Below, piece by piece: positions 1 to 10,299 of a DNA stretch of 10,299 nucleotides; within the stretch, counting starts at the first letter, position 1, and each line of letters starts with the position of its first letter. A program made the translations under genes and the position numbers. The notes beneath the pieces are model-generated. The model was not told the DNA's origin and made no database searches. It saw only the letters and a list, made by a program, of their open reading frames with translations. This DNA comes from Candidatus Thorarchaeota archaeon (GTDB lineage: Archaea; Asgardarchaeota; Thorarchaeia; Thorarchaeales; Thorarchaeaceae), in NCBI GenBank assembly GCA_003345595.1, contig PRDI01000094.1, forward strand, positions 1 to 10,299, in the 5' to 3' direction.

Positions 1-15
1 CATGGCATTCACCTC
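1..15 (-). promoter_or_regulatory. Archaeal Shine-Dalgarno (GAGGTGA) overlapping the nitroreductase stop, preceding the ATG of a downstream gene that runs off the left edge
   Basis: Minus strand reads AAGAGGTGA ATGCC ATG. The TGA at 11-9 is the stop and part of GAGGTGA. The ATG at 3-1 lies 5 nt after GGTGA; an alternative ATG is at 8-6. Confidence 0.6.
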
Positions 16-752
16 TTCTTGGAGAATGGCTGCCCCCATCGGTTCAGGAACGCAATCTCTTCAGGAGTCTGCCTCGGTGGCCCTTGTGTCCTTTCGAACT
101 TTGGGTAACCCAAGGTCAGACATAGAATCGGAACCCAGTGAGGGTCGGGGATGCCTAGTTTCTCGCACACTGCTCTGACATCATCGAAGTGGTCTAGCTG
201 CACCGATGAAACGCAACTTCCGAGTCCAAGTGATGTGGCCGCCAGAGCCATATTCTGCATCATCATTCCTCCGGCAACTACCGCGTGTCTAGGTGATGAC
301 CACCCAAAGACACCTCCTGTTCCTCTGAGTGTGGCCTGAGAGTTGCCTACGTGAGTCTGGTCGACAGCAAGGACCAGAAGGACAGGCGCACCATTGGTTT
401 CGGGTCTCCCCTTGATGTATTCGAATCTCTGACCTGTCACAAGTATGTCTATTGTTCTCTCAAGGCTGACCTTCGATTCGATGTAGCTGAGACGACGCTC
501 CAGTTCTTGACGAGGAGTTGCTCGGCCAAAGAGCTGAACGGTCCTGTCCACTGCGATCTGACCAATGAATTCTTGAATCTTCTTGTCCCGGACCACGATG
601 ACTCTCCAGGGCTGTTGATTCTCAGCACTCGGGGCATAGCCGCCCGCCTCGATCACTCTGTAGATGAGTTCGTCGGACACATCCTTCGAAGTATCATAAT
701 CCCTGATGGCACGTCGAGATTTGATGATGGTGATAGTTTCGTTGTCTTCCAA
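9..752 (-). CDS. Nitroreductase-family FMN-dependent oxidoreductase with a long internal insertion
   Basis: FMN-binding motifs IKSRRAIRDY, APSAENQQPWRVIVV, QNMALAATSLGLGSC and LTLGYP. TTG start with TGGAG about 10 nt upstream and no in-frame ATG just upstream. Confidence 0.9.
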   Translation of the reverse strand: MEDNETITIIKSRRAIRDYDTSKDVSDELIYRVIEAGGYAPSAENQQPWRVIVVRDKKIQEFIGQIAVDRTVQLFGRATPRQELERRLSYIESKVSLERTIDILVTGQRFEYIKGRPETNGAPVLLVLAVDQTHVGNSQATLRGTGGVFGWSSPRHAVVAGGMMMQNMALAATSLGLGSCVSSVQLDHFDDVRAVCEKLGIPDPHWVPILCLTLGYPKFERTQGPPRQTPEEIAFLNRWGQPFSKKR

Positions 753-875
753 GAAGGTCTTGCTCCATGGACTCGTGCACGTCTGGCGGGCGAACTCCTT
801 TCTTAAGTAAGTACCTTCTGGAATGATCCGTGCAATCCACTCGCAGACTCTACCAGTCCTTGGTGCTGATGCGTC

Positions 876-1424
876 CTATTCGAATTCGTAGCGACCTGTC
901 TTGGGCAGGCCGGCGATACTCCGCTCGAGTTCATCTCTCTGTTTGTAGTACTCGGCTATCGAGATAGTTCCCTTGTCGCGGTCCTGCTTCGCTTTGTTCA
1001 GCTTGTACTCAAGTTCCGTCTTCTCCATGGAAGCTAAGCTCAGCGACGTCACTATTCTGACCCTGGCGCCTGCTCTCTCACTAACTCCTCTGAGCAACGG
1101 GGTCCAGCAGACCTCTTGAACGTGAGCCGCAAATTCGAAACCCCTTTCGAGGACCCTTTCCCATGTTGGACTTGACTTGATTACAATTTCCTTGCCGCTC
1201 TGTTCAACCTCGAAACCCATGGCTCTCAAGGTTTCAGCGGAAGTGTGAGCTGCAGCCTCGGCACCCTTGGCCTCAGCCCTTACCGCAGCCCCCTGTCCAA
1301 TCTGCCGGAAGATGCTAGAATGGCGGTCAGACCATGACCGGTCGCCAAGAGATCCGCTCGCCGATGACAAGAGCCGCTCTATGAAGGTGGTGAAGGTCTT
1401 TCTCACGGTTCCGGGTTCGCTCAT
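876..1424 (-). CDS. Hypothetical protein, probable V4R/H-NOX/Bet3(TRAPP)-like fold with a SHOCT-like helical hairpin insertion
   Basis: ORF 876..1436. The second ATG (1424) is preceded by GGTGA with a 5-nt spacer, so it is the preferred start. Segments IFRQIGQGAA, LRAMGFEVEQSGKEIVIKSSPTWE, VCWTPLLRGVSE and GRYEFE resemble V4R-like proteins. LNKAKQDRDKGTISIAEYYKQRDEL resembles SHOCT. The CDS is likely real; the fold call is tentative. Confidence 0.55.
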   Translation of the reverse strand: MSEPGTVRKTFTTFIERLLSSASGSLGDRSWSDRHSSIFRQIGQGAAVRAEAKGAEAAAHTSAETLRAMGFEVEQSGKEIVIKSSPTWERVLERGFEFAAHVQEVCWTPLLRGVSERAGARVRIVTSLSLASMEKTELEYKLNKAKQDRDKGTISIAEYYKQRDELERSIAGLPKTGRYEFE

Positions 1425-1476
1425 CCAGCTCACCATCTTGCTTCGGGTAGCTGGGTATGGTCTATGAACAGCTGTC

Positions 1477-2085
1477 TTAAGGCCTTGTCAGTAGCTTCGT
1501 TATCTCCGCAATCCTTCTTCCGAAGTCCCTAGCTATCTTGCGCTCTACTTGGTCAACGGGACGCATACTTTCGGCTCCCGCCACAGCAGTGGGACCATAT
1601 GGGGTTCCGCCTGATTGGGTCGTGTCGACTTCTGGCGAAACATACCCTGCCGGCACAATGATCATTCCATGGTGCATCAGTGGAATCATCATAGTAATGA
1701 GAGTTGTTTCCTGGCCTCCGTGCATCGAGCTTGAGCCCGAGAACACTCCACCGACCTTATTGACCAGCTTGCCTTTAGCCCAGAGTGGACCAGTCTGATC
1801 GATGAAGTTCTTCATCTGGGCTGCCATGTTGCCGTATCTTGTCGGACTGCCAAATACAATGGCGTCATAGTCCGCAAGTTCAGCCACCTCGGCGACAGGT
1901 ACGTCCTTCTGAAGTTCCACGCCGGCTTTCAGTCTTGGCCTTGATTCTACTATAGAGGTTGGCACTAGTTCGGGAACCCGCTTTATCTTGACATCCGCCC
2001 CAACTTCCTTCGCACCTGCGGCTATCTCCTTTGCTAACTCGTACATGTGACCGAAGGTGCTGTAGTACACGATTAGCATTCTCAT
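1477..2085 (-). CDS. wrbA: NAD(P)H:quinone oxidoreductase, WrbA-type flavodoxin-like protein
   Basis: Signature motifs IVYYSTFGHM, KRVPELVP, ADYDAIVFGSPTRYGNMAAQMKNFIDQTG, HGGQETTL and GGTPYGPT; 202 aa. Confidence 0.95.
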   Translation of the reverse strand: MRMLIVYYSTFGHMYELAKEIAAGAKEVGADVKIKRVPELVPTSIVESRPRLKAGVELQKDVPVAEVAELADYDAIVFGSPTRYGNMAAQMKNFIDQTGPLWAKGKLVNKVGGVFSGSSSMHGGQETTLITMMIPLMHHGMIIVPAGYVSPEVDTTQSGGTPYGPTAVAGAESMRPVDQVERKIARDFGRRIAEITKLLTRP

Positions 2086-2108
2086 GACTTTAACGATTGT
2101 GAACCAAC

Positions 2109-2118
2109 CGTATAAGCA
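2109..2118 (-). promoter_or_regulatory. Putative TATA box of a leaderless wrbA transcript
   Basis: Minus-strand GCTTATAC is centred about 28 nt upstream of the ATG at 2085 and no SD precedes the ATG. This spacing fits archaeal leaderless mRNAs. Confidence 0.45.
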
Positions 2119-2157
2119 TTACGATTCTGACCTGAACGCTTGTGTTCTGAAGGCATC

Positions 2158-2973
2158 TCATAGTGCACTTGAGTTCGCCGGCGCACGAACTGAACGGTCG
2201 GTTGCCCTTCTCACCATCTTGATTGCCTGATTCTCACACACCGAGACGCACAGGCCACATCCAACGCATCTCTCGGGTTCATGCTTCATTGCTCCGTTCA
2301 AGACCGTTCTGGCCTTGAAGTGACATCGAGGGACGCATCTGCCGCAATCATTGCACTTCTCCCGATCGTGCTCCACTGTGAAGTTGCTTGCAAGGGCAGT
2401 ATTGCCCAGTCCATACTGTATCGCACTTCTAAGCATGACGCAGCAGCACGGGCAGCAGTTGCAGATCACATAGAAGTAGTCAGATGATGGAGCGGTTATT
2501 AGCTGATGAACGAGGCCAGCTCTGTCAGCACGAAGCACCAAATCCTCGATGTCATTAACTGTGGCTGATTTGACAGGCATTCTGGTTGAAAGCTCGGCGA
2601 GACTCTGGGCAGTCCCAGTGTGGATGCAGGTCCACACATCATTGTCACAGTTCTTGTGGGCACTTCTACAATAACAATACCCAATGGCTAGGGCGGGCAC
2701 TCTCCTTATGATGCTGAGAATCTCCTCAGTGGGCGACACAGTCGGGACTGCAGTGAGGCTCACGTTAAGTGGTATGACTCGACTCCCATAGACCCGAGTG
2801 ACTAGGCTCATCATATCCTCGAAGTAGTTGAGTCGGGTGTGGCGGTCAAGAAAACGGATCGTATCGAGGATTGGCACTTCAAGAAGGCCAAAAAGCGACG
2901 AGAACACCTTGCCTATGGGAGGGTAACGAAGGAGGAATCGGATGCGCATAGTGACGATGCGTGGAAGTGCCAT
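2158..2973 (-). CDS. Cys-rich iron-sulfur protein with a C-terminal 2x[4Fe-4S] ferredoxin domain
   Basis: Two CxxCxxCxxxC motifs (CNDCGRCVPRC, CVGCGLCVSVC), plus CYCR-x5-C-x6-C and GLVHQ...ICNCCPCCC; 18 Cys in total. Confidence 0.88.
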   Translation of the reverse strand: MALPRIVTMRIRFLLRYPPIGKVFSSLFGLLEVPILDTIRFLDRHTRLNYFEDMMSLVTRVYGSRVIPLNVSLTAVPTVSPTEEILSIIRRVPALAIGYCYCRSAHKNCDNDVWTCIHTGTAQSLAELSTRMPVKSATVNDIEDLVLRADRAGLVHQLITAPSSDYFYVICNCCPCCCVMLRSAIQYGLGNTALASNFTVEHDREKCNDCGRCVPRCHFKARTVLNGAMKHEPERCVGCGLCVSVCENQAIKMVRRATDRSVRAPANSSAL

Positions 2974-3039
2974 CAGTTCTCACATCATATCTAACGAAGC
3001 ATCTTAGCTGCCAGATAGGGAACAACTGCTTCATCACTG

Positions 3040-3094
3040 GGAAGCAGAAAAAGGAAGTGTGCCGCGCCAAGCACGACGTTCGGCGTGGCATATT
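3040..3094 (-). terminator. Stem-loop followed by a pyrimidine/T-tract downstream of the acyl-CoA dehydrogenase gene (putative terminator)
   Basis: Inverted repeat 3056-3072/3078-3094 lies just after the TAG at 3103-3101. On the minus strand it is followed by TCCTTTTTCTGCTTC. Confidence 0.5.
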
Positions 3095-3100
3095 GACTGT

Positions 3101-4303
3101 CTAGATGATCGGAGCATCTCTGCCCTCGTATTTCACGCGGAATCCCGTGTCTAGACTCTTGCTTTCTTTCAAGATTGCACTACTGGCAACCACGCGTTGC
3201 ACTTGGTTGGTGCCCTCGTAGATCTGTAGGAGCTTTGCATCCCGCAGGAGCTTCTCTGCAGGCCACTCATTGAGGTAGCCGTAGCCGCCCATGATCTGTA
3301 CCGCATCGGTAGCATTCTGCATGGCCGCATCTGATGCAAAGAACTTGGCAAACGCGGAATCCTTTGAGTTGTCTTTTCCTTGGTCAGCAAGCCAAGCGGC
3401 ATAGCGTGTTAGTTGTCTGGCCGCGGCTACCCTTGCGCCCATATCTGCGAGAGTGAAGCCGATTCCCTGGAACTCTCCAATTGGATGTCCAAACTGGTGA
3501 CGTACACTAGCAAACCTGGCGGCTTCGTCAAGTGCTCTCTGGGCAACGCCCGTCGCAATGGCCGCAATCCCAGCTCGCGTCTTGTCGAGAGTCTTCATCG
3601 CTATCTTGAATCCGTCACCTTCCTTTCCCACGAGGCAGTCAGCTGGGACTCTCACATCCTGAAAGATGACTTCACTCTGAACCGAGTTGCGCTGTCCCAC
3701 CTTGTTTTCTATGTGACCCATGGAAACCCCTTTGCTCTTCGGCACCATGAAGACAGAGATGCCCTTGTGCTTGAGCTCAGGCTGAGTTGTAGCGAACACT
3801 GTGAATAGAGATGCCACTGGCGCACTTGTGATGAAACACTTCACACCGTTGATGATGTACTCGTCTCGGTCTCGCACTGCCTTAGTGGCAACTGATGCAG
3901 CATCTGACCCTGCTGTCCTCTCTGTAAGACAGAAAGCACCGAGCTTCCCCTCTTTCCCTGTTATGAGAGGCTTGACATAGGTCTTGAGCTGGTCAATCGT
4001 AGCCCCAATCACCAGAGGCGCAAAGGCTAGGTTGTTACACATGATAGATGTGGCCATTCCTGCGCAACCGTACCCTGTAGCTTCGGACACGAAGGTTTCT
4101 GCCAAGAGCGACATGCCCGGCCCGCCAGCCTCTACTGGAATGTGTAGATTCATGAGACCCGCTTCGTAAGCCTTCTGCACTATGTCCTTCGGAAACTCGT
4201 CATGCTTCTCGAGCTCCTGTGCGCGCGGAGTAATGTACTGCCGCGTGAACTCTCTGGCTCGTTCTGCAAGCTTCTGTTCTTTTTCAGTCAGCGAGAAGTC
4301 CAT
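3101..4303 (-). CDS. Acyl-CoA dehydrogenase (short/medium-chain, butyryl-CoA dehydrogenase-like)
   Basis: Motifs MDFSLTE, GAFCLTERTAGSDAAS, YIINGVKCFITSA, GFKIAMKTLDKTR, RHQFGHPIGEFQGI, AVQIMGGYGY, and the catalytic Glu in QIYEGTNQVQR. Confidence 0.95.
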   Translation of the reverse strand: MDFSLTEKEQKLAERAREFTRQYITPRAQELEKHDEFPKDIVQKAYEAGLMNLHIPVEAGGPGMSLLAETFVSEATGYGCAGMATSIMCNNLAFAPLVIGATIDQLKTYVKPLITGKEGKLGAFCLTERTAGSDAASVATKAVRDRDEYIINGVKCFITSAPVASLFTVFATTQPELKHKGISVFMVPKSKGVSMGHIENKVGQRNSVQSEVIFQDVRVPADCLVGKEGDGFKIAMKTLDKTRAGIAAIATGVAQRALDEAARFASVRHQFGHPIGEFQGIGFTLADMGARVAAARQLTRYAAWLADQGKDNSKDSAFAKFFASDAAMQNATDAVQIMGGYGYLNEWPAEKLLRDAKLLQIYEGTNQVQRVVASSAILKESKSLDTGFRVKYEGRDAPII

Positions 4304-4419
4304 TGTTTGTCGACCTGTTGCTGGCGGTTTCGAAGTCCCCTTTTAAAGTATAAGACCAGCTCCCTTAAATCCTCCAAAACTCTGGCGGGCATTAGCGTAT
4401 CAATTGTGGAGCTGCCGAG
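4304..4419. promoter_or_regulatory. Divergent promoter region between the acyl-CoA dehydrogenase and thiolase genes
   Basis: AT-rich core TTTTAAAGTATAAG (4341-4354) and CTTAAAT (4364-4370) in otherwise mixed-composition DNA; TGGAG lies 8 nt before the thiolase ATG. Confidence 0.55.
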
Positions 4420-5592
4420 ATGCCGCTGAAAAAGACGTTCATAGTGAGCGGTGCTCAGACAAAGTTCGGAGCACTTGAAGGAGTCACTTTCCGGGAGATG
4501 CTTGCTGAGGCTGTTGACAAGGCCACGATTCAAGCAGGCGTACCCAAGAAGGAGATCCAAGCCGTTTTCTTGGGGACGTTCAATCCGGAAATGCTGATAC
4601 ATCAAGGGCATACAGCACCGTTGCTCCTTGACTATGCAGGTTTGAGAGGACTGCCCGCGACGCGACATGAAGCTGCGTGTGCGTCTGGTGCCGTGGCTCT
4701 GCGTGCAGGAATAATGGCCATTGAGTCCGGGCTTTATGATACTGTTCTGGTTGGAGGAGTCGAGAAGATGACTTCTGTATCGACGAACAAAGTCACCGAA
4801 GCTCTCGCTGCAGCGGCAGACGACGAGTTCGAGTCCGGTGTGGGTCTGACATTTCCCGGTGTTTTTGCATTGGCTGCAGTAGCTCACATGAACAGATATG
4901 GAACAACCCAAGAGGACATGGCTCTTGTTGCTGTAAAGGCACACAAGAACGCCGCGTCTAATCCGTTGGCACAGTTCCAAAAGGAGATTACTCTCGAGAA
5001 AGCGATGACCCCCAAGTTCGTTGCTTGGCCCCTGAAGCTATTCGACTGTTCTCCCATTTCTGATGGCGCCGCTGCGCTCGTACTCTCATCCGACAAGAAG
5101 GCGAAGCAGTACACTGACACGCCTGTGAAGATAGTTGGGTCCGGTCAGGCCTCAGCATCGATGAACCTCTCCGGTCGTTCGGACCTGACGTCGTTCGAGG
5201 CTTCCGTCGCAGCAAGCAGGTCTGCTTACAAGATGGCCAATCTCACGCCCAAGGACATTGATTTCGCTGTTGTGCATGACTGTTTCACCATCGCAGAAAT
5301 AATCGCAACAGAGGACATTGGGTTCTTCAAGCCAGGGGAGGGCGCAAAGGCAGTCCGGGAGGGAATAACCGCGAAAGACGGCGCCAAGCCCATCAATCCT
5401 ACTGGAGGTCTGAAGGCTGTGGGTCACCCTGTCGGAGCCACAGGAGTAAAGCAGGCTGTCGAGGTCTACAAGGAGCTGATAGGGGCTGCCGGCGCGAACC
5501 AGGTGCCAAAACACAATATCGGTCTGATGCACAACTTTGGTGGGACTGGAGCCACCTGTGTTGTCAATATCATGAGGAGGGCTGATGCATGA
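4420..5592 (+). CDS. Acetyl-CoA C-acyltransferase (archaeal/SCP2-type thiolase)
   Basis: Nucleophile motif EAACASG, plus GGVEKMT, DCSPISDGAAA, VHDCFT (SCP2-type), GHPVGATG and C-terminal HNFGG. Confidence 0.95.
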   Translation: MPLKKTFIVSGAQTKFGALEGVTFREMLAEAVDKATIQAGVPKKEIQAVFLGTFNPEMLIHQGHTAPLLLDYAGLRGLPATRHEAACASGAVALRAGIMAIESGLYDTVLVGGVEKMTSVSTNKVTEALAAAADDEFESGVGLTFPGVFALAAVAHMNRYGTTQEDMALVAVKAHKNAASNPLAQFQKEITLEKAMTPKFVAWPLKLFDCSPISDGAAALVLSSDKKAKQYTDTPVKIVGSGQASASMNLSGRSDLTSFEASVAASRSAYKMANLTPKDIDFAVVHDCFTIAEIIATEDIGFFKPGEGAKAVREGITAKDGAKPINPTGGLKAVGHPVGATGVKQAVEVYKELIGAAGANQVPKHNIGLMHNFGGTGATCVVNIMRRADA

Positions 5593-5978
5593 GCGAGCGA
5601 CCTACAGTTGAGGCCTACAAGAAGAACATTCAGGAGGGAAAGTTCAGAGCCCTCAAGTGTAGCAGCTGCGGGGCGGTAATAACCCCTCCATTGGGTACAT
5701 GCTACAATTGTGGTGGCAACAAGATGGAATGGACTAACGTCAGCGGAAAGGGAAAGCTCGTGTCGTTCACGGTGATCCACGTTGCTCCAGATGAGTTTGC
5801 CCCTGAGGTTCCCTACATCGTTGCCATAGTGGAGCTCGCTGAGAAGAGTCGGGTCACAGCTAGACTCGCCGGTTTCGATCCATTGAAGCCGGAAGCCATC
5901 AAGATCGGCATTCCGCTGGTGCTTGGCTACGAGAAAGGCAAGTCTGGGAAGAACTACCTATCTTTCAGACCCGCCTAA
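5589..5978 (+). CDS. DUF35-family Zn-ribbon/OB-fold protein (thiolase partner)
   Basis: CSSC-x10-CYNC rubredoxin-like ribbon followed by SGKGKLVSFTVIH...PYIVAIVELAE OB-fold. ATGA overlap (5589-5592) with the thiolase stop suggests translational coupling. Confidence 0.93.
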   Translation: MSERPTVEAYKKNIQEGKFRALKCSSCGAVITPPLGTCYNCGGNKMEWTNVSGKGKLVSFTVIHVAPDEFAPEVPYIVAIVELAEKSRVTARLAGFDPLKPEAIKIGIPLVLGYEKGKSGKNYLSFRPA

Positions 5979-6114
5979 ACGACTGCTAGAACGGTATGTC
6001 CCCTGAGGAGTCCTAGTGTTCAGTCATGTTCTGCCGCTGTAGACGAGGGTTGCCTCCATTAGATTGCGAAGACAACACATGAGAAACCGAAGGCGTTGGT
6101 GGATGCACCACACA

Positions 6115-6858
6115 TCAAGGGGGCGAAATCTCCTGGGGCGGTCTGTTGGCCTTGAGATTCGACCAGTCAACCCTGACCATCAGATACAGGATAACCACAA
6201 CGGCGAGGACAGTCAATACCTCGGCTGACTTGGAGACCCAGCTCGTTGGATTGATAGCATCTATCAGTTGCTGAATGAAGCCGAGGCCCGTCCTTCCAGC
6301 CCATGCAACCCCTGTGAGAAACATGCTTTTTCCAAGGAGCTGAAGGAGGAACACTTTCCACCATGGGTATCTAACAACCCCAAGTGGGACTATGAGCTCA
6401 TCGTCAGGCAGAGGGGTCACAGCAAGAAACCACAAGACCAACGGTGTCAGGCGTGGATGTTTCTCGATGAGTGACAGGAACCCACCTCTCCGACTCTCAT
6501 CGATAAAATGGCCTCCAGCCCGGCCAATTGCATACCCGGTCATCTCTCCAAGGGTCGCTCCTATTCCCGAGGCGATACCTACAACGAACGGATTGAACAT
6601 GAACTCATGAGTGATAGTGTCGGTCAAGCCTCCTAGCATGAATGGGACGGCAATGTACGGAAAGGGGATCAGAATCGTGGCATTGCCAATGAAGGAGATA
6701 AGGAACGAACCGGGGTAGCCCATGACTACCGACACCTGTTCCAACCATGCGTAGAGAAAGGTGATCGGACCTGAGAGTCCTGTGTAAAGGCTGACAACCA
6801 CCCAGTACGTGAGGAGAAGAGCTACCGAGATGACGAACAGCATATCCAATCTGCGCAT
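6115..6858 (-). CDS. DedA/VTT (SNARE-associated Golgi protein-like) membrane protein
   Basis: Several hydrophobic segments, DedA-type GATLGEMTGYAIGRAGG and TPLPDDELIVPLGVVRYPWWKVF...GK. Start uncertain: TTG 6882, ATG 6858 or ATG 6843. Confidence 0.85.
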   Translation of the reverse strand: MRRLDMLFVISVALLLTYWVVVSLYTGLSGPITFLYAWLEQVSVVMGYPGSFLISFIGNATILIPFPYIAVPFMLGGLTDTITHEFMFNPFVVGIASGIGATLGEMTGYAIGRAGGHFIDESRRGGFLSLIEKHPRLTPLVLWFLAVTPLPDDELIVPLGVVRYPWWKVFLLQLLGKSMFLTGVAWAGRTGLGFIQQLIDAINPTSWVSKSAEVLTVLAVVVILYLMVRVDWSNLKANRPPQEISPP

Positions 6859-6982
6859 TATGCTCTGGCCCGCAGAGCGCAATCTCTTTCAGTCATGATA
6901 TGAACGTTCCCGCTGCAGCTAGGGACAATCACTTCGCGTGACCGTGACTCGGAATGCAGTCGCTTGTGAGAGGCATAGAGAA

Positions 6983-8242
6983 ATGAGATACTCCTTCCGT
7001 TATGGAGCAGGTCGTATTGATATCGACGCAGATGCTTTCAATAGTGTGTTTGAGATATTGCCGAGGTCTGCGGCTGACCAATCTGACGTCTGGGGTACTA
7101 TCCTGAATGCGCTTGAGCATCCTATTGGGACGGATCCTCTTGCCAATTCCGTTTCTGACTCTTCGACAATCACGGTCGTCGTTGACAGGCCCACAGCAGC
7201 ATTCCCTGCGCGTGATGTCCTCGCCCCCGTCCTCTCAAGCCTGCAAGCACAAGCTCTAGATCCGGGCAATATCACAGTGCTGCTCACATCTCAGTATGAT
7301 TTGACCTGCACAAAGGATGAAGTCAACAGGCTTCTGGACGATCCGGTTTCGCAAGGATATCACTTATTGTTGCATGACCCGGCTGATGCGAGTAGGCTGC
7401 GGGAGGTTGGCAAGACACCGACGTCTCGAACGCCGCTGGAAGTGAACAAGAGCTTTCTAGACGCCGACTTCAAGATGGCCCTGAGCAGCATTAGGCCTGA
7501 TCCATTCGCTAGTGCAACTGGTGGCGGGATGTCAATACTGCCTGGATTATGCAGTCTAAGAGGTATGGTTCATCATATGCGAATGCGGGCTATGACCAAG
7601 AACCCTCCTCTCGCGGTGGACAGCCCTGCAAGTGTCGACATGAGCGAAGCGGCGCTTCTTGCCGGTCTCGACTTCGTCTTGAACACTGTCCCGGACTGGA
7701 GGGGTTCCCTTGCCGATGTTGTTGGTGGTAATCCAAAAGCGGCTTGGTCACGAGGTGTTGAGTCTTCAATGGCCTTGTCCTCCGCCACCATTCCAGGCAA
7801 GTTCGATCTGGTTGTCGTGAGTGCAGGTGGGTTTCCGTCCGACCTGACGCTGTATGGTGCTATTGACAGTCTCTATGCGGCACGAATAGCTTGTAGAAGA
7901 AACGGGGCAATACTTCTGGTTGCTGAGTGTAGTCAAGGTCTTGGTCCCAGCGGTTTTGCAGATTGTGTCACCAGCGCAAAATCCGAGAAAGAGGTGGCAT
8001 CTCTGATAGAGGACAGTTTCAGAACCGGCATGGAGAAAGCAAGACTCTTCTGGAGCGTCAATGAGTCAACGAATCTCATCCTGTGGTCGGAACTGCCGAA
8101 TTCTCTCGTGGCCAACAAGCTTCATTGCACTGGTGTGCAGGACTCTCAAGAGGCCACTGATGCGGCGCGAGCCATCCTGGGGACCGGTCCAAAGGCGGCA
8201 CTCGTTCCAGACGGCCGGGCGATAGTCTTGTCAGACGTCTAG
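6983..8242 (+). CDS. LarA (nickel-pincer lactate racemase, DUF2088) homologue with degenerate catalytic residues
   Basis: LarA scaffold motifs FRYG, ALEHPIGT, HDP, VGKT...TPLEVN, GG.xSILPG, LDFVLN, DLVVVSAGGFPSDLTLY and GAILLVAECSQGLG. ATG 6983 preceded by GAGG is preferred over GTG 6938. No gene symbol is given because the catalytic His/Lys positions are substituted. Confidence 0.85.
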   Translation: MRYSFRYGAGRIDIDADAFNSVFEILPRSAADQSDVWGTILNALEHPIGTDPLANSVSDSSTITVVVDRPTAAFPARDVLAPVLSSLQAQALDPGNITVLLTSQYDLTCTKDEVNRLLDDPVSQGYHLLLHDPADASRLREVGKTPTSRTPLEVNKSFLDADFKMALSSIRPDPFASATGGGMSILPGLCSLRGMVHHMRMRAMTKNPPLAVDSPASVDMSEAALLAGLDFVLNTVPDWRGSLADVVGGNPKAAWSRGVESSMALSSATIPGKFDLVVVSAGGFPSDLTLYGAIDSLYAARIACRRNGAILLVAECSQGLGPSGFADCVTSAKSEKEVASLIEDSFRTGMEKARLFWSVNESTNLILWSELPNSLVANKLHCTGVQDSQEATDAARAILGTGPKAALVPDGRAIVLSDV

Positions 8243-8517
8243 TGCTTTGCTGCGGTCTGCTTCTTCTTCGGTGCAGCGGCCTTTGCTGGCTTCTCGTCGA
8301 ACAGTGCGTCTACGGCCGATAGTGCGCCACTCTTTTCCTTCTCGGTGAACTGCTCTAGTTTGCCCGCTTTAGCTATCTTGACGGTCACGAGGGCATCGTC
8401 ATCCCTTGGCTCCATCACCCAAGAGATCTCGAGACCAGGTTTCTCGGACACAAACTGCTTCAACAGCTCAAGCCATGCCTTCTTGACATCGTCAATCTTG
8501 ACGTACAGAAACTCCAT
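8239..8517 (-). CDS. Small hypothetical protein (about 92 aa) with an alpha/beta core and a Lys/Ala-rich C-terminal tail
   Basis: ORF 8239..8589. The natural-looking part begins at ATG 8517 (MEFLYVKIDDVKKAWLELL...). Its TAG overlaps the LarA-like TAG in the tetranucleotide CTAG (8239-8242). Confidence 0.65.
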   Translation of the reverse strand: MEFLYVKIDDVKKAWLELLKQFVSEKPGLEISWVMEPRDDDALVTVKIAKAGKLEQFTEKEKSGALSAVDALFDEKPAKAAAPKKKQTAAKH

Positions 8518-8672
8518 GAGTGGAATGCTGACTTCTACGCAAAGGACCCCTGCGGACTTTATGTAGTAGTTCTCCACGTTCCAGTGCAATTCTGAGGACT
8601 CCTGATGGCCTGTGCCCGGCCGTACGTATGACTGATAAGTCTTGTTCAGTTTGCAAAAGACTACAGAGCCGG

Positions 8673-10299
8673 CTAGTCCTTGTCTCTCTCCTTTTCGTCT
8701 TTCGACAGGAGGTGCTCCACATCCTCTATGAACTTGTCAGCATCGTCAGCCGCAGGCTTCTTTTTTCCACGAGCCCGCTTCGCCTTGGGTTCGGCTTCTG
8801 TTGACAGCAGACGTTCGATGTCTGCGACGAACTGTTCCTCGGGCTTGGGCTTCTCAGCAGCTGCCGCAATCTCGGCCTCGGGTTGTTTTGGTTGCTCAAC
8901 AGAAGCAGGCTCCTCACTCGGAGTGATGCCTTCCACATATCGACTCAAGTCCGCCTCTGGATGAGGCGCCTCACGAATCTCTTCTTCGACTCTTTCCGGA
9001 GCATGCCCTTCGATGACAGACTCGTCCTCTGTGGTTGCCGGCTCGTACTCTTCTTCTGTGAAGGCCTCGATTTCTGGAGCTTTCTCTCCGGAGATGACCG
9101 ACTCTTCCCACTGCAGTGGCTCAGGCGTTGGCTTCTCGCCTTCTCTACCCTTCTCAGAAACCGATTCCTTGATTTCCTCGCTTGGGGCCGCTTCGTGACC
9201 CATTATGGGCTCAGGGGGGACTTCCTCCGTTTCAGTTTCGTTTCCAGGAAGGGCCATTCCTTGTCTCTGAAGTATGGTCTGGATGTTGATCGGAACAATG
9301 TAGCCCTTCTCCGCCATCATCAGAAGGCGATCCAATGCCTCGGCATCGGTCTTGCCAAACTGCTTGGCGACTTCATCGATAACGTCGCGTATGAAGAACT
9401 CGCCCTTTTCGTTGAGCTTCGTGCTGAGAAGGTTGAGTATCTTCTTTGAAGTACCATCCATTCTCTTCATGGTAGAAATCCTATGAGGTAGGACCCATCT
9501 GTAGTTGAACGCTGCGTTGAGATTGGACACGATCCACTCTGGGTCGAAGCAGTCGGTTTCGCCCTTCCAGTTCTTGAGGTGATCTTCGTACTTGCTCTCG
9601 AACACCTCAATGAAGTATTGCAGCCTCTCTTTGAGTAGCTGAGTCAGTTCGCCCTCTAGGATGAGGATACCGATTACATACTTGCCGCTGTAGCTGTTCA
9701 GTTTCAGTCCGTGGTAGTGGATTTCCTCGAGGGTCCCTTGGACTCCGTCACCCTTTAGCTCTCCGTATACGCTAGTGATTGCAGCGATGAAGCCACTGAT
9801 CAGGTCGGCCTGAATCCTTGCTTCTGCGAACGGATGATAGAAGACGCAGGTTCCACGACCGACATATACTGCGATGAAGTGCTTCAATGAGCCGAGGTCC
9901 TTGAAGGCCTGAAGCTGCTGCTCCATCGATAGTTTCGCTGCTCTTACCTTTGGCTTGTGGCTCTTGTTGTAGGCGGTTGTGGCCACGGCCGCGACTATTA
10001 CGGTGCCTAGCATCATGAGGCCCGGGGTGCTTGTCAGGAACAACAATAACTGAGCGAACAACGTGGGCGTGACTTCGAACCGTCTTGTTGAACTGGTGCT
10101 CCACCTGTTCAATGCTCCGGCATAGTTCGCCTCCACGTCAAGGTAGTCCACGCCAAGGGGAATTGGAAAGGCCCAGCTGGCCTCTCCTTCAGCGTTTGTA
10201 GGATACGAGTCTTCCGATAGCATCCTCGTTCCGTTCTCATACTCGATTGTCACTCTGAAGATGATATACGCTCCCGGAACTGGTGTGTCGGTGTCGTTC
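8673..10299 (-). CDS. Large single-pass membrane protein (5'-truncated by the window): Ig-like ectodomain, TM helix, longin-like domain, winged-helix-like domain, acidic disordered tail
   Basis: The frame stays open past GTG 10253 to the edge (NDTDTPVPGAYIIFRV-TIEYENG...). Beta-rich TNAEGEASWAF...VEANYAG segment; TM GLMMLGTVIVAAVATTAY followed by basic NKSHKPKVRAAK; longin-like HFIAVYVGRGTCVF...ADLISGFIAAITSV...LKERLQYFIEVFESKY; E/P-rich tail. Confidence 0.8.
   Translation of the reverse strand, partial: NDTDTPVPGAYIIFRVTIEYENGTRMLSEDSYPTNAEGEASWAFPIPLGVDYLDVEANYAGALNRWSTSSTRRFEVTPTLFAQLLLFLTSTPGLMMLGTVIVAAVATTAYNKSHKPKVRAAKLSMEQQLQAFKDLGSLKHFIAVYVGRGTCVFYHPFAEARIQADLISGFIAAITSVYGELKGDGVQGTLEEIHYHGLKLNSYSGKYVIGILILEGELTQLLKERLQYFIEVFESKYEDHLKNWKGETDCFDPEWIVSNLNAAFNYRWVLPHRISTMKRMDGTSKKILNLLSTKLNEKGEFFIRDVIDEVAKQFGKTDAEALDRLLMMAEKGYIVPINIQTILQRQGMALPGNETETEEVPPEPIMGHEAAPSEEIKESVSEKGREGEKPTPEPLQWEESVISGEKAPEIEAFTEEEYEPATTEDESVIEGHAPERVEEEIREAPHPEADLSRYVEGITPSEEPASVEQPKQPEAEIAAAAEKPKPEEQFVADIERLLSTEAEPKAKRARGKKKPAADDADKFIEDVEHLLSKDEKERDKD
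8703..8837 (-). repeat. Duplicated 12-aa amphipathic motif (EQFVADIERLLS / DKFIEDVEHLLS) in the C-terminal tail
   Basis: Copies at 8837-8802 and 8738-8703 share F-[VI]-x-D-[IV]-E-x-L-L-S and are separated by a basic linker (PKAKRARGKKKP). Confidence 0.75.

Follow-up and report, generated by a model that had tools for sequence, protein, structure and literature searches.

Gene organization at the contig end

The window analyzed here is the complete 10,299-bp contig PRDI01000094.1 (C94) of a Candidatus Thorarchaeota archaeon, whose genome assembly comprises 2.73 Mb and is 83% complete. One end of the contig is occupied by the 3′ part of a gene for a type I surface glycoprotein, in which a giant ectodomain is joined by a single transmembrane (TM) segment to a longin-fold domain, a winged helix, and a long acidic tail (Table 1). 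The intact gene should have about 1,500 codons, judged from full-length orthologues, most of which are about 1,500 residues long (range, 1,460 to 2,170). The closest full-length relative, P0051, has 1,634 residues and is 92% identical to the window's protein over residues 85 to 345. The missing N-terminal residues (about 1,100) were not assembled anywhere else in this genome, where only a 24%-identical paralogue on contig C30 surfaced. Many database entries of the family are likewise "partial," probably because the long repetitive ectodomain breaks assemblies.

Residue numbers in this text count from the open end of the open reading frame (ORF; 8673-10298, minus strand). A preliminary description of this DNA had counted from an internal GTG at position 10253, so its residue numbers are 15 lower; its nucleotide coordinates agree with ours, and each element that it listed was found in its place. 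It had also called for the full gene to be retrieved, and the complete layout was here supplied by the full-length orthologues. The 541-residue protein had no significant match in Pfam, NCBIfam, or the sequences of solved structures, and the family profile likewise had none. Database searches nevertheless returned more than 150 close relatives, labeled as Thorarchaeota or other Asgard lineages where a label exists.

Table 1. Features of the surface glycoprotein gene and its downstream neighbor in the window
Feature	Position	Strand	Basis or remark
3′ part of type I surface glycoprotein gene, 541 codons plus stop	8673..10298	-	5′ end cut by contig end
Membrane-proximal beta-sandwich, last ~80 ectodomain residues, with conserved NGT sequon	10059..10298	-	Pfam matches and sequon conservation in orthologues
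Single TM segment, residues 84-110	9969..10049	-	Kyte-Doolittle peak 1.95
Basic stop-transfer cluster and juxtamembrane helix, residues 111-136	9891..9968	-	Model helix 2-32
Longin-fold domain, residues 137-270, beta-beta-alpha-beta-beta-beta-alpha-alpha	9489..9890	-	AlphaFold2 model and PDB fold searches
Winged helix-turn-helix unit, residues 272-345, ending in KGYIVP	9264..9485	-	Model secondary structure, VIA-align, Pfam
Acidic C-terminal tail, residues 346-541 (196 residues), probably disordered	8676..9263	-	Composition, variability among orthologues
Tail motif copy 1, FVADIERLL	8805..8831	-	Conserved motif in orthologues
Tail motif copy 2, FIEDVEHLL, 10 residues before the C-terminus	8706..8732	-	Conserved motif in orthologues
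Small downstream gene, 116 codons, TTG start, GGAG 12-15 nucleotides upstream	8239..8589	-	No known family

Ectodomain and membrane topology

Residues 1 to 80 are rich in beta-strands and carry two sequons, NDT (residues 1-3) and NGT (residues 22-24). Two sequons in 80 residues are uninformative by themselves, and NKS and NET are also present in the cytoplasmic part. The NGT sequon is nearly invariant among 60 orthologues, however, and the ectodomains of 95 full-length orthologues hold 3.5 sequons per 100 residues versus 0.28 in their cytoplasmic parts, an enrichment whose median z, relative to shuffled ectodomains, is 6.7. The window's own 80 ectodomain residues had no Pfam match by themselves. 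When the last 380 ectodomain residues of 60 orthologues were searched, CarboxypepD_reg was matched in 35 (best E, 6e-12), Big_1 in 19, and MG4 in 6, and the proposal that the ectodomain is Ig-like is therefore right in the broad sense of a beta-sandwich.

Directly after the hydrophobic stretch follows NKSHKPKVRAAK, with a net charge of +4, and the juxtamembrane flank has this same net charge and an isoelectric point (pI) of about 10 in orthologues and paralogues alike. Complete orthologues begin with an N-terminal signal peptide, visible in these full-length proteins only since the window lacks the 5′ end, and continue with an ectodomain of about 1,100 residues and one TM segment near residue 1,140 to 1,170. 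The family thus combines a signal peptide, a large ectodomain, a single TM segment, a positive-inside flank, and sequons on the outer side, as type I single-pass surface glycoproteins do. As predicted from these sequence features, the topology is type I, and the C-terminal 430 residues, longin included, lie in the cytoplasm. The inward orientation of the longin follows from the signal peptide and sequon-rich ectodomain of full-length orthologues together with the +4 charge of the inner flank. The single TM helix and inside-facing module of the preliminary description were thus recovered, and nothing placed the domain outside the cell.

Fold of the cytoplasmic module

An alignment of residues 105 to 345 (A1) was assembled from 142 sequences, the query and 141 relatives, 61 of them close and 81 distant. 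The AlphaFold2 model built from it had a predicted local distance difference test score (pLDDT) of 80.6 and a predicted template modeling score (pTM) of 0.72, and shows a long juxtamembrane helix, a longin topology (model residues 33-165, protein residues 137-270), and a helix-strand-helix-helix-strand unit (model residues 168-241). DSSP assigned the longin part as E34-41, E46-52, H60-78, E89-91, E94-100, E104-111, H116-137, and H149-165, that is, beta1-beta2-alpha1-beta3-beta4-beta5-alpha2-alpha3, with no N-terminal roadblock helix on the sheet. The longin-like domain contains the sequences GTCVF, DLISGFIAAI, FESKY, and WKG.

All 27 Foldseek matches in the PDB at E ≤ 1e-3 were longin-domain proteins, among them AP sigma, Fuzzy, zeta-COP, TRAPP Bet5/Trs23, Sec22b, VAMP7, Mon1-Ccz1, and GATOR1 chain 8fw5_D (E, 9.2e-4). 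In an independent all-against-representatives structure alignment of the model (VIA-align), the top match was Fuzzy (7q3d_C; Z, 13.4; root-mean-square deviation [rmsd], 2.8 over 125 residues), followed by VAMP7 (4afi_B; Z, 12.4), Sec22 (3egd_C; Z, 12.1), and a Lokiarchaeota longin (8yqg_B; Z, 11.9), and below those by synbindin and sedlin of TRAPP, AP mu/sigma, SRX, and Mon1-Ccz1. Longins overall scored Z 10 to 13.4 over 105 to 136 residues and spanned model residues 33 to 162/166. Roadblock proteins were matched at Z 8.9 to 10, with matches that stop around model residue 135 to 139, short of the two C-terminal helices by which a longin is defined. Residues 137 to 270 thus model as a longin and longins rank first in the PDB searches, as the preliminary description had anticipated.

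At the sequence level, none of the 142 family members matched the Pfam longin models PF13774 (Longin), PF19036 (Fuz_longin_1), or PF19031 (Intu_longin_1) at E ≤ 0.05. Paralogues in the genome come near the Pfam threshold, with a Fuz_longin_1 score of 25.8 bits versus a cut-off of 26.1 and weak matches to Longin, Robl_LC7, HTH_NPRL3, and DUF742. The nearest clusters in the ESM Atlas were unannotated Asgard proteins (TM-score, 0.78-0.81), and farther ones included one with HTH_47 and one with V4R.

The unit that follows the longin was modeled with the elements H178-188, a strand near 196, H199-209, H214-226, and E230-232, in the order expected of a winged helix-turn-helix. It aligned with the winged-helix-type segment of 6ec8_A over 78 residues (Z, 9.7; rmsd, 2.5), and NirdL-like_HTH, a model of Lrp/AsnC type, was matched in 34 of the 142 family members (best E, 1.2e-5), with HTH_24 matched in 3. 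Model order, structure match, and these sequence matches agree on the winged helix that had been proposed from the DNA. The protein does not have the makeup of an Lrp/AsnC regulator, in which a soluble chain combines the winged helix-turn-helix with a RAM/ACT-like domain: no RAM domain was found, and the winged helix comes after a TM segment and a longin.

These matches could still be taken to mean that the winged helix binds DNA, at the membrane or after proteolysis, and that the protein is a membrane-tethered transcription regulator reporting the state of its ectodomain. Automatic annotations label several orthologues "DNA-binding Lrp family transcriptional regulator," and a giant protein encoded upstream in relatives (see below) ends in a more basic, classical winged helix. 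However, the third ("recognition") helix is acidic, with a net charge of −3, and in orthologues the unit as a whole is neutral (median pI, 6.9), features that fit protein binding better than DNA binding. The unit moreover sits between a longin and a long, strongly acidic tail, a context known for no Lrp-family regulator, and the winged helices beside longins in NPRL2/3 bind protein. We therefore judge a tethered regulator very improbable.

The acidic tail and its conserved motif

The tail consists of 29% D/E and 12% K/R, and among about 155 orthologues it varies both in sequence and in length, from 57 to 207 residues. In most of these orthologues, the motif F-[VIL]-x-[DE]-[VI]-E-x-L-[LMI] occurs once or twice near the C-terminus, and the spacing of its hydrophobic residues (i, i+1, i+4, i+7, and i+8) points to an amphipathic helix. 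Its sequence is also compatible with the acidic dileucine pattern of eukaryotes, [DE]xxxL[LI], a likeness that we treat as coincidence for the time being. Elsewhere in the genome only two chance-like matches occurred in 1.69 million residues, and a role as a general sorting signal of the genome's proteins was accordingly rejected. Paralogous families lack the motif and have different C-terminal extensions; in one large clade of distant paralogues (P0165-P0223), the module is followed by an extension of about 197 residues that ends in a conserved ASEIFKLG...EVKRL..K.KEYEKL motif and takes the place of the acidic tail. The family thus seems to have differing "output" ends.

Retention of an amphipathic motif within an otherwise variable tail, specific to the orthologue group, is a feature that would suit a self-regulated switch of the kind known from longin SNAREs, in which the tail motif would bind the longin groove in the same or a neighboring molecule and so control closed and open states or clustering, and with them the access of other partners. 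Two of the strongest structural matches, VAMP7 and Sec22, have longins to which helical peptides bind. Longin SNAREs (VAMP7, Sec22b, and Ykt6) resemble the protein studied here in being membrane proteins with a longin in the cytosol, which in their case binds helical peptides, and with a helical motif in the same chain. They are, however, anchored by the tail, carry the longin at the N-terminus together with a SNARE motif, and have no ectodomain, whereas the order here is ectodomain, TM segment, and longin, with no SNARE heptad region. The motif could equally bind an unrelated partner, and we consider a switch of this kind quite unlikely.

Conservation, distribution, and paralogues

Among ten full-length orthologues, median identity was 61% for the longin/winged-helix module and 37% for the ectodomain. 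In the orthologue alignment of the module, dozens of positions never vary, among them the R-G-T-C of the beta1-beta2 loop. No counterpart could be placed for the catalytic arginine finger that lies next to the GP motif in longins of GTPase-activating type (see below); two arginines, R148 in this loop and R161, are shared by all orthologues, whereas paralogues vary at these positions.

A search of a 1.8-billion-protein representative library returned 606 representatives at E ≤ 1e-3, mostly with the module at the end of long proteins. In a sample of the phylum, 192 of 201 genomes had a match at E ≤ 1e-5, including all 85 genomes that are ≥90% complete and ≤5% contaminated, and orthologue-level matches (E < 1e-60) occurred in several families.

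The genome under study holds 15 proteins with the same type of longin: four receptor-type giants (the window's protein and three paralogues), several soluble proteins consisting of a longin or a longin plus winged helix, one protein with four TM segments, and one GTPase fusion. The receptor-type paralogues at C127:586-12292 (plus strand; two in tandem) and C30:3170-7921 (plus strand) have 1,918, 1,822, and 1,584 residues, respectively; each combines Ig-type repeats with a TM helix, a longin at the C-terminus, and an N-terminus resembling a signal peptide.

Possible link to small GTPases

Ras-superfamily proteins were matched 25 times in this genome. One locus joins such a GTPase directly to the longin superfamily: C102:19273-21234 (L023:274-2235, minus strand) encodes a 653-residue protein with an Arf/Roc-like GTPase domain (residues 121-253; Pfam Arf E, 2.6e-18) and a longin (residues 381-500). 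This longin belongs to the same superfamily as the module (hmmsearch E, 2.6e-11; hhalign probability, 90.6%, and E, 1.3e-6), and the alignment between the two includes the FE..Y...W.G signature. A 573-residue soluble protein encoded just upstream of the fusion, with weak longin and HTH_47 matches that suggested a longin plus winged helix, was not counted as a relative, its hhalign probability against the module being 15.6%. On C68, a weak longin-like ORF lies two genes upstream of a Ras-family GTPase. Among the structural matches of the module's model is also 9m28_A, a Rag-like GTPase from Asgard archaea, aligned through its C-terminal domain (Z, 8.7).

Fusion and neighborhood of this kind constitute a Rosetta-stone type of argument, which would apply to the longin superfamily and not to the window's protein itself. 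From the fold family and the paralogous C102 fusion, we infer that the module may be wired to a small GTPase or trafficking platform, as had been suggested from the DNA.

Neighboring genes and synteny

The loci of five relatives share one gene order: a gene of 2,000 to 3,400 codons on the same strand, the receptor gene, a gene of about 100 codons, and then metabolic genes (LarA-like, VTT/DedA, ChsH2-type OB, thiolase, and acyl-CoA dehydrogenase). This shared order indicates a vertically inherited chromosomal locus rather than a mobile element. In the window, positions 1 to 8242 encode a nitroreductase, a 186-residue ORF of no family, a flavodoxin/FMN reductase, a 4Fe-4S protein, an acyl-CoA dehydrogenase, a thiolase and its ChsH2-type OB/zinc-ribbon partner, a membrane protein of the VTT/DedA type, and a LarA-like protein, and these metabolic genes keep the same order as in relatives.

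The product of the small downstream gene, P0268, is represented by 40 clusters with 48% to 87% identity, from Thorarchaeota where labeled. The gene is single-copy in 35 of the 43 genomes of its own family; outside that family, the search of other families yielded it only once, in a genome from a second family belonging to the same taxonomic order. Both the gene and an orthologue-level module match were located in 33 genomes, and in 31 of these it is the next gene on the same strand, immediately downstream of the receptor gene. P0268 has no Pfam match, and its AlphaFold2 model (pLDDT, 67.5) is a moderately confident beta-beta-alpha-beta-beta-alpha sandwich. Fold searches returned generic alpha/beta sandwich matches only (best Foldseek E, 8.5e-3; best VIA-align Z, 6.8), and an ESM Atlas feature search gave no usable match.

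The upstream gene of the syntenic loci, which in this genome would lie beyond the contig end, encodes a second giant type I surface protein (L015:1-4269, L018:1-5792, and L019:1-5854). In its cytoplasmic end, the TM helix is accompanied only by an RRRRG cluster and a winged helix of the classical, basic kind. The idea that this giant carries the same longin module was rejected, as no longin was found in its cytoplasmic end. Two giant surface proteins that differ in their inner tails are thus encoded side by side.

Such a pair, directly adjacent and on the same strand, could belong to an envelope. The receptor might then be a structural protein of an Asgard coat that lacks an S-layer, with a module that only clusters, sorts, or anchors it by self-association or by contact with the cytoskeleton or ESCRT, and no GTPase would be involved. 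The genome's receptor-type paralogues, at least four in number, would suit this role; longin and roadblock domains are typically dimerization modules (PMC10933270), and cultured Lokiarchaeia have numerous complex surface proteins and no ordered S-layer (PMC9834061). A plain anchor, however, would need no module that is about 61% identical among orthologues and retains many invariant surface-type residues (R148, H140, H155, and E/D), and the same type of longin is fused to a GTPase elsewhere in this genome. A purely structural function therefore appears unlikely to us.

Comparison with known systems

The fold of the module, including alpha2 and alpha3, is that of the eukaryotic longins of Fuzzy/Inturned (CPLANE), Mon1-Ccz1, TRAPP (Bet5, Trs23, sedlin, and synbindin), the N-domains of AP sigma/mu, zeta-COP, and SR-alpha (SRX), at an identity of only 5% to 15%. 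Those longins are soluble subunits of complexes, whereas the module forms the cytoplasmic end of a giant glycoprotein of type I. Solved Asgard structures share the fold family as well, namely, the Lokiarchaeota Roadblock-Longin 8yqg (Z, 11.9), MK-D1 Roadblock3 9jue (Z, 10.0), and LokiRagM 9m28 (Z, 8.7); unlike the window's protein, they are soluble and have neither TM helix nor ectodomain.

Other systems hold a small GTPase on a membrane-associated platform of the roadblock superfamily, sometimes with a winged-helix partner, as in Ragulator/LAMTOR and the bacterial MglB and conservon systems, the conservon comprising CvnB (roadblock), CvnC (DUF742 winged helix), and CvnD (GTPase); the weak DUF742 match noted above belongs to a paralogue of this genome. 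These platforms differ in being built on roadblocks, not longins, with weaker and shorter structural matches, and in being anchored by lipidation or by a separate sensor protein.

NPRL2 and NPRL3 of GATOR1 and the Asgard NPRL2-like longins likewise place a winged-helix part after a longin, and a paralogue here has a weak HTH_NPRL3 match. In a preprint by Liu et al. (10.1101/2020.10.19.343400), the accessible text reports NPRL2-like longin families in Thor and Loki genomes, one of them, containing a longin and a winged helix, in most Thor genomes, as well as fusions of NPRL2-like longins to signaling domains, including two-component ones; fusion through a TM segment to a giant ectodomain is not described in that text. 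Full-text literature searches brought up no account of a longin and winged helix linked through a TM helix to a giant ectodomain of type I. Asgard longin/roadblock expansions and GTPase-longin and GTPase-roadblock fusions have been published (PMC10933270), and one such fusion occurs in this genome. The protein represents a new architecture of an already known kind of domain. New in the present analysis are the locus conserved in Thorarchaeota with its small partner gene, the motif in the tail, the asymmetry of the sequons, the test for a GP motif reported below, and the GTPase-longin fusion within this genome. The phrase "eukaryote-like architecture," used in the preliminary description, suits the parts and not their arrangement: a type I giant ectodomain with longin and winged helix was matched here only in Asgard proteins.

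Proposed function

We put at about even the chance that the protein is a surface glycoprotein that uses its longin/winged-helix platform, together with the tail motif, to bring in a partner from the cytosol, for which an Arf/Rag-like GTPase, or the longin fused to it, would be the likeliest candidate. It would be an N-glycosylated type I giant with a signal peptide, about 1,100 residues of CarboxypepD_reg/Big_1-type repeats, one TM segment, and a cytoplasmic docking platform formed by the longin, the winged helix, and a flexible acidic tail presenting one or two amphipathic helical motifs. The fast-evolving ectodomain would engage what lies outside, be it the envelope, a partner cell, or a substrate, while the slowly evolving module would hold a cytosolic partner at that spot of the membrane. 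The most probable partner would be an Arf/Rag-like small GTPase, or a longin or roadblock domain fused to one, held perhaps as Ragulator roadblock dimers hold the C-terminal domains of Rags, as SRX holds SR-beta, or as TRAPP and Mon1-Ccz1 longins hold Rabs. The tail motif may provide a second docking site, or may fold back to regulate the longin groove as in longin SNAREs.

Several observations weigh against recruitment of a GTPase. No GTPase gene lies beside the receptor gene in the window or in the loci of the five syntenic relatives, and longin folds have other uses as well that involve no GTPase, among them the regulation of SNAREs and the packing of coat subunits. The Lrp/AsnC family, which the winged helix resembles in sequence, is mostly DNA-binding. 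Homology to eukaryotic longins rests on predicted structure, because no significant sequence match was obtained. Finally, a GP motif in the loop just before beta2 is reported to be specific to the longins of GTPase-activating protein (GAP) type, FLCN, NPRL2, SMCR8, and C9orf72 (PMC12290439), and this motif is absent: the equivalent loop reads R-G-T-C invariantly in the 61 orthologues and [TS]-G-T-C in the 81 distant members, and the commonest residues after the conserved G are T, L, V, and I, with proline not among them. Because the GP motif is absent, the module was not filed with NPRL2, FLCN, and SMCR8, despite its NPRL2/3-like layout of longin and winged helix.

A further step, which we offer as speculation and are inclined to doubt, is that proteins of this family act as kinase-free transmembrane receptors, in which contact at the ectodomain alters how the longin/winged-helix platform holds or regulates Arf/Rag-like GTPases, for example, the longin-fused ones of the same genomes. 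Small GTPases and longin/roadblock proteins number in the dozens in Asgard archaea, whose cells are mostly without internal membranes. In this family, a longin platform is fixed to the cytoplasmic side of the plasma membrane, beneath a giant glycoprotein, which gives these parts a defined place; the soluble 240-residue module and the 9-residue tail motif could each serve as bait. Should the partner not be a GTPase, the family would still account for part of the unusual Asgard cell envelope. If the receptor reading is true, the longin-GTPase machinery of eukaryotic internal membranes would first have worked at the Asgard cell surface. A GTPase partner would support the view that proto-trafficking regulators began as machinery of the cell surface or of cell contact, and would bear on protrusion-based models of eukaryogenesis.

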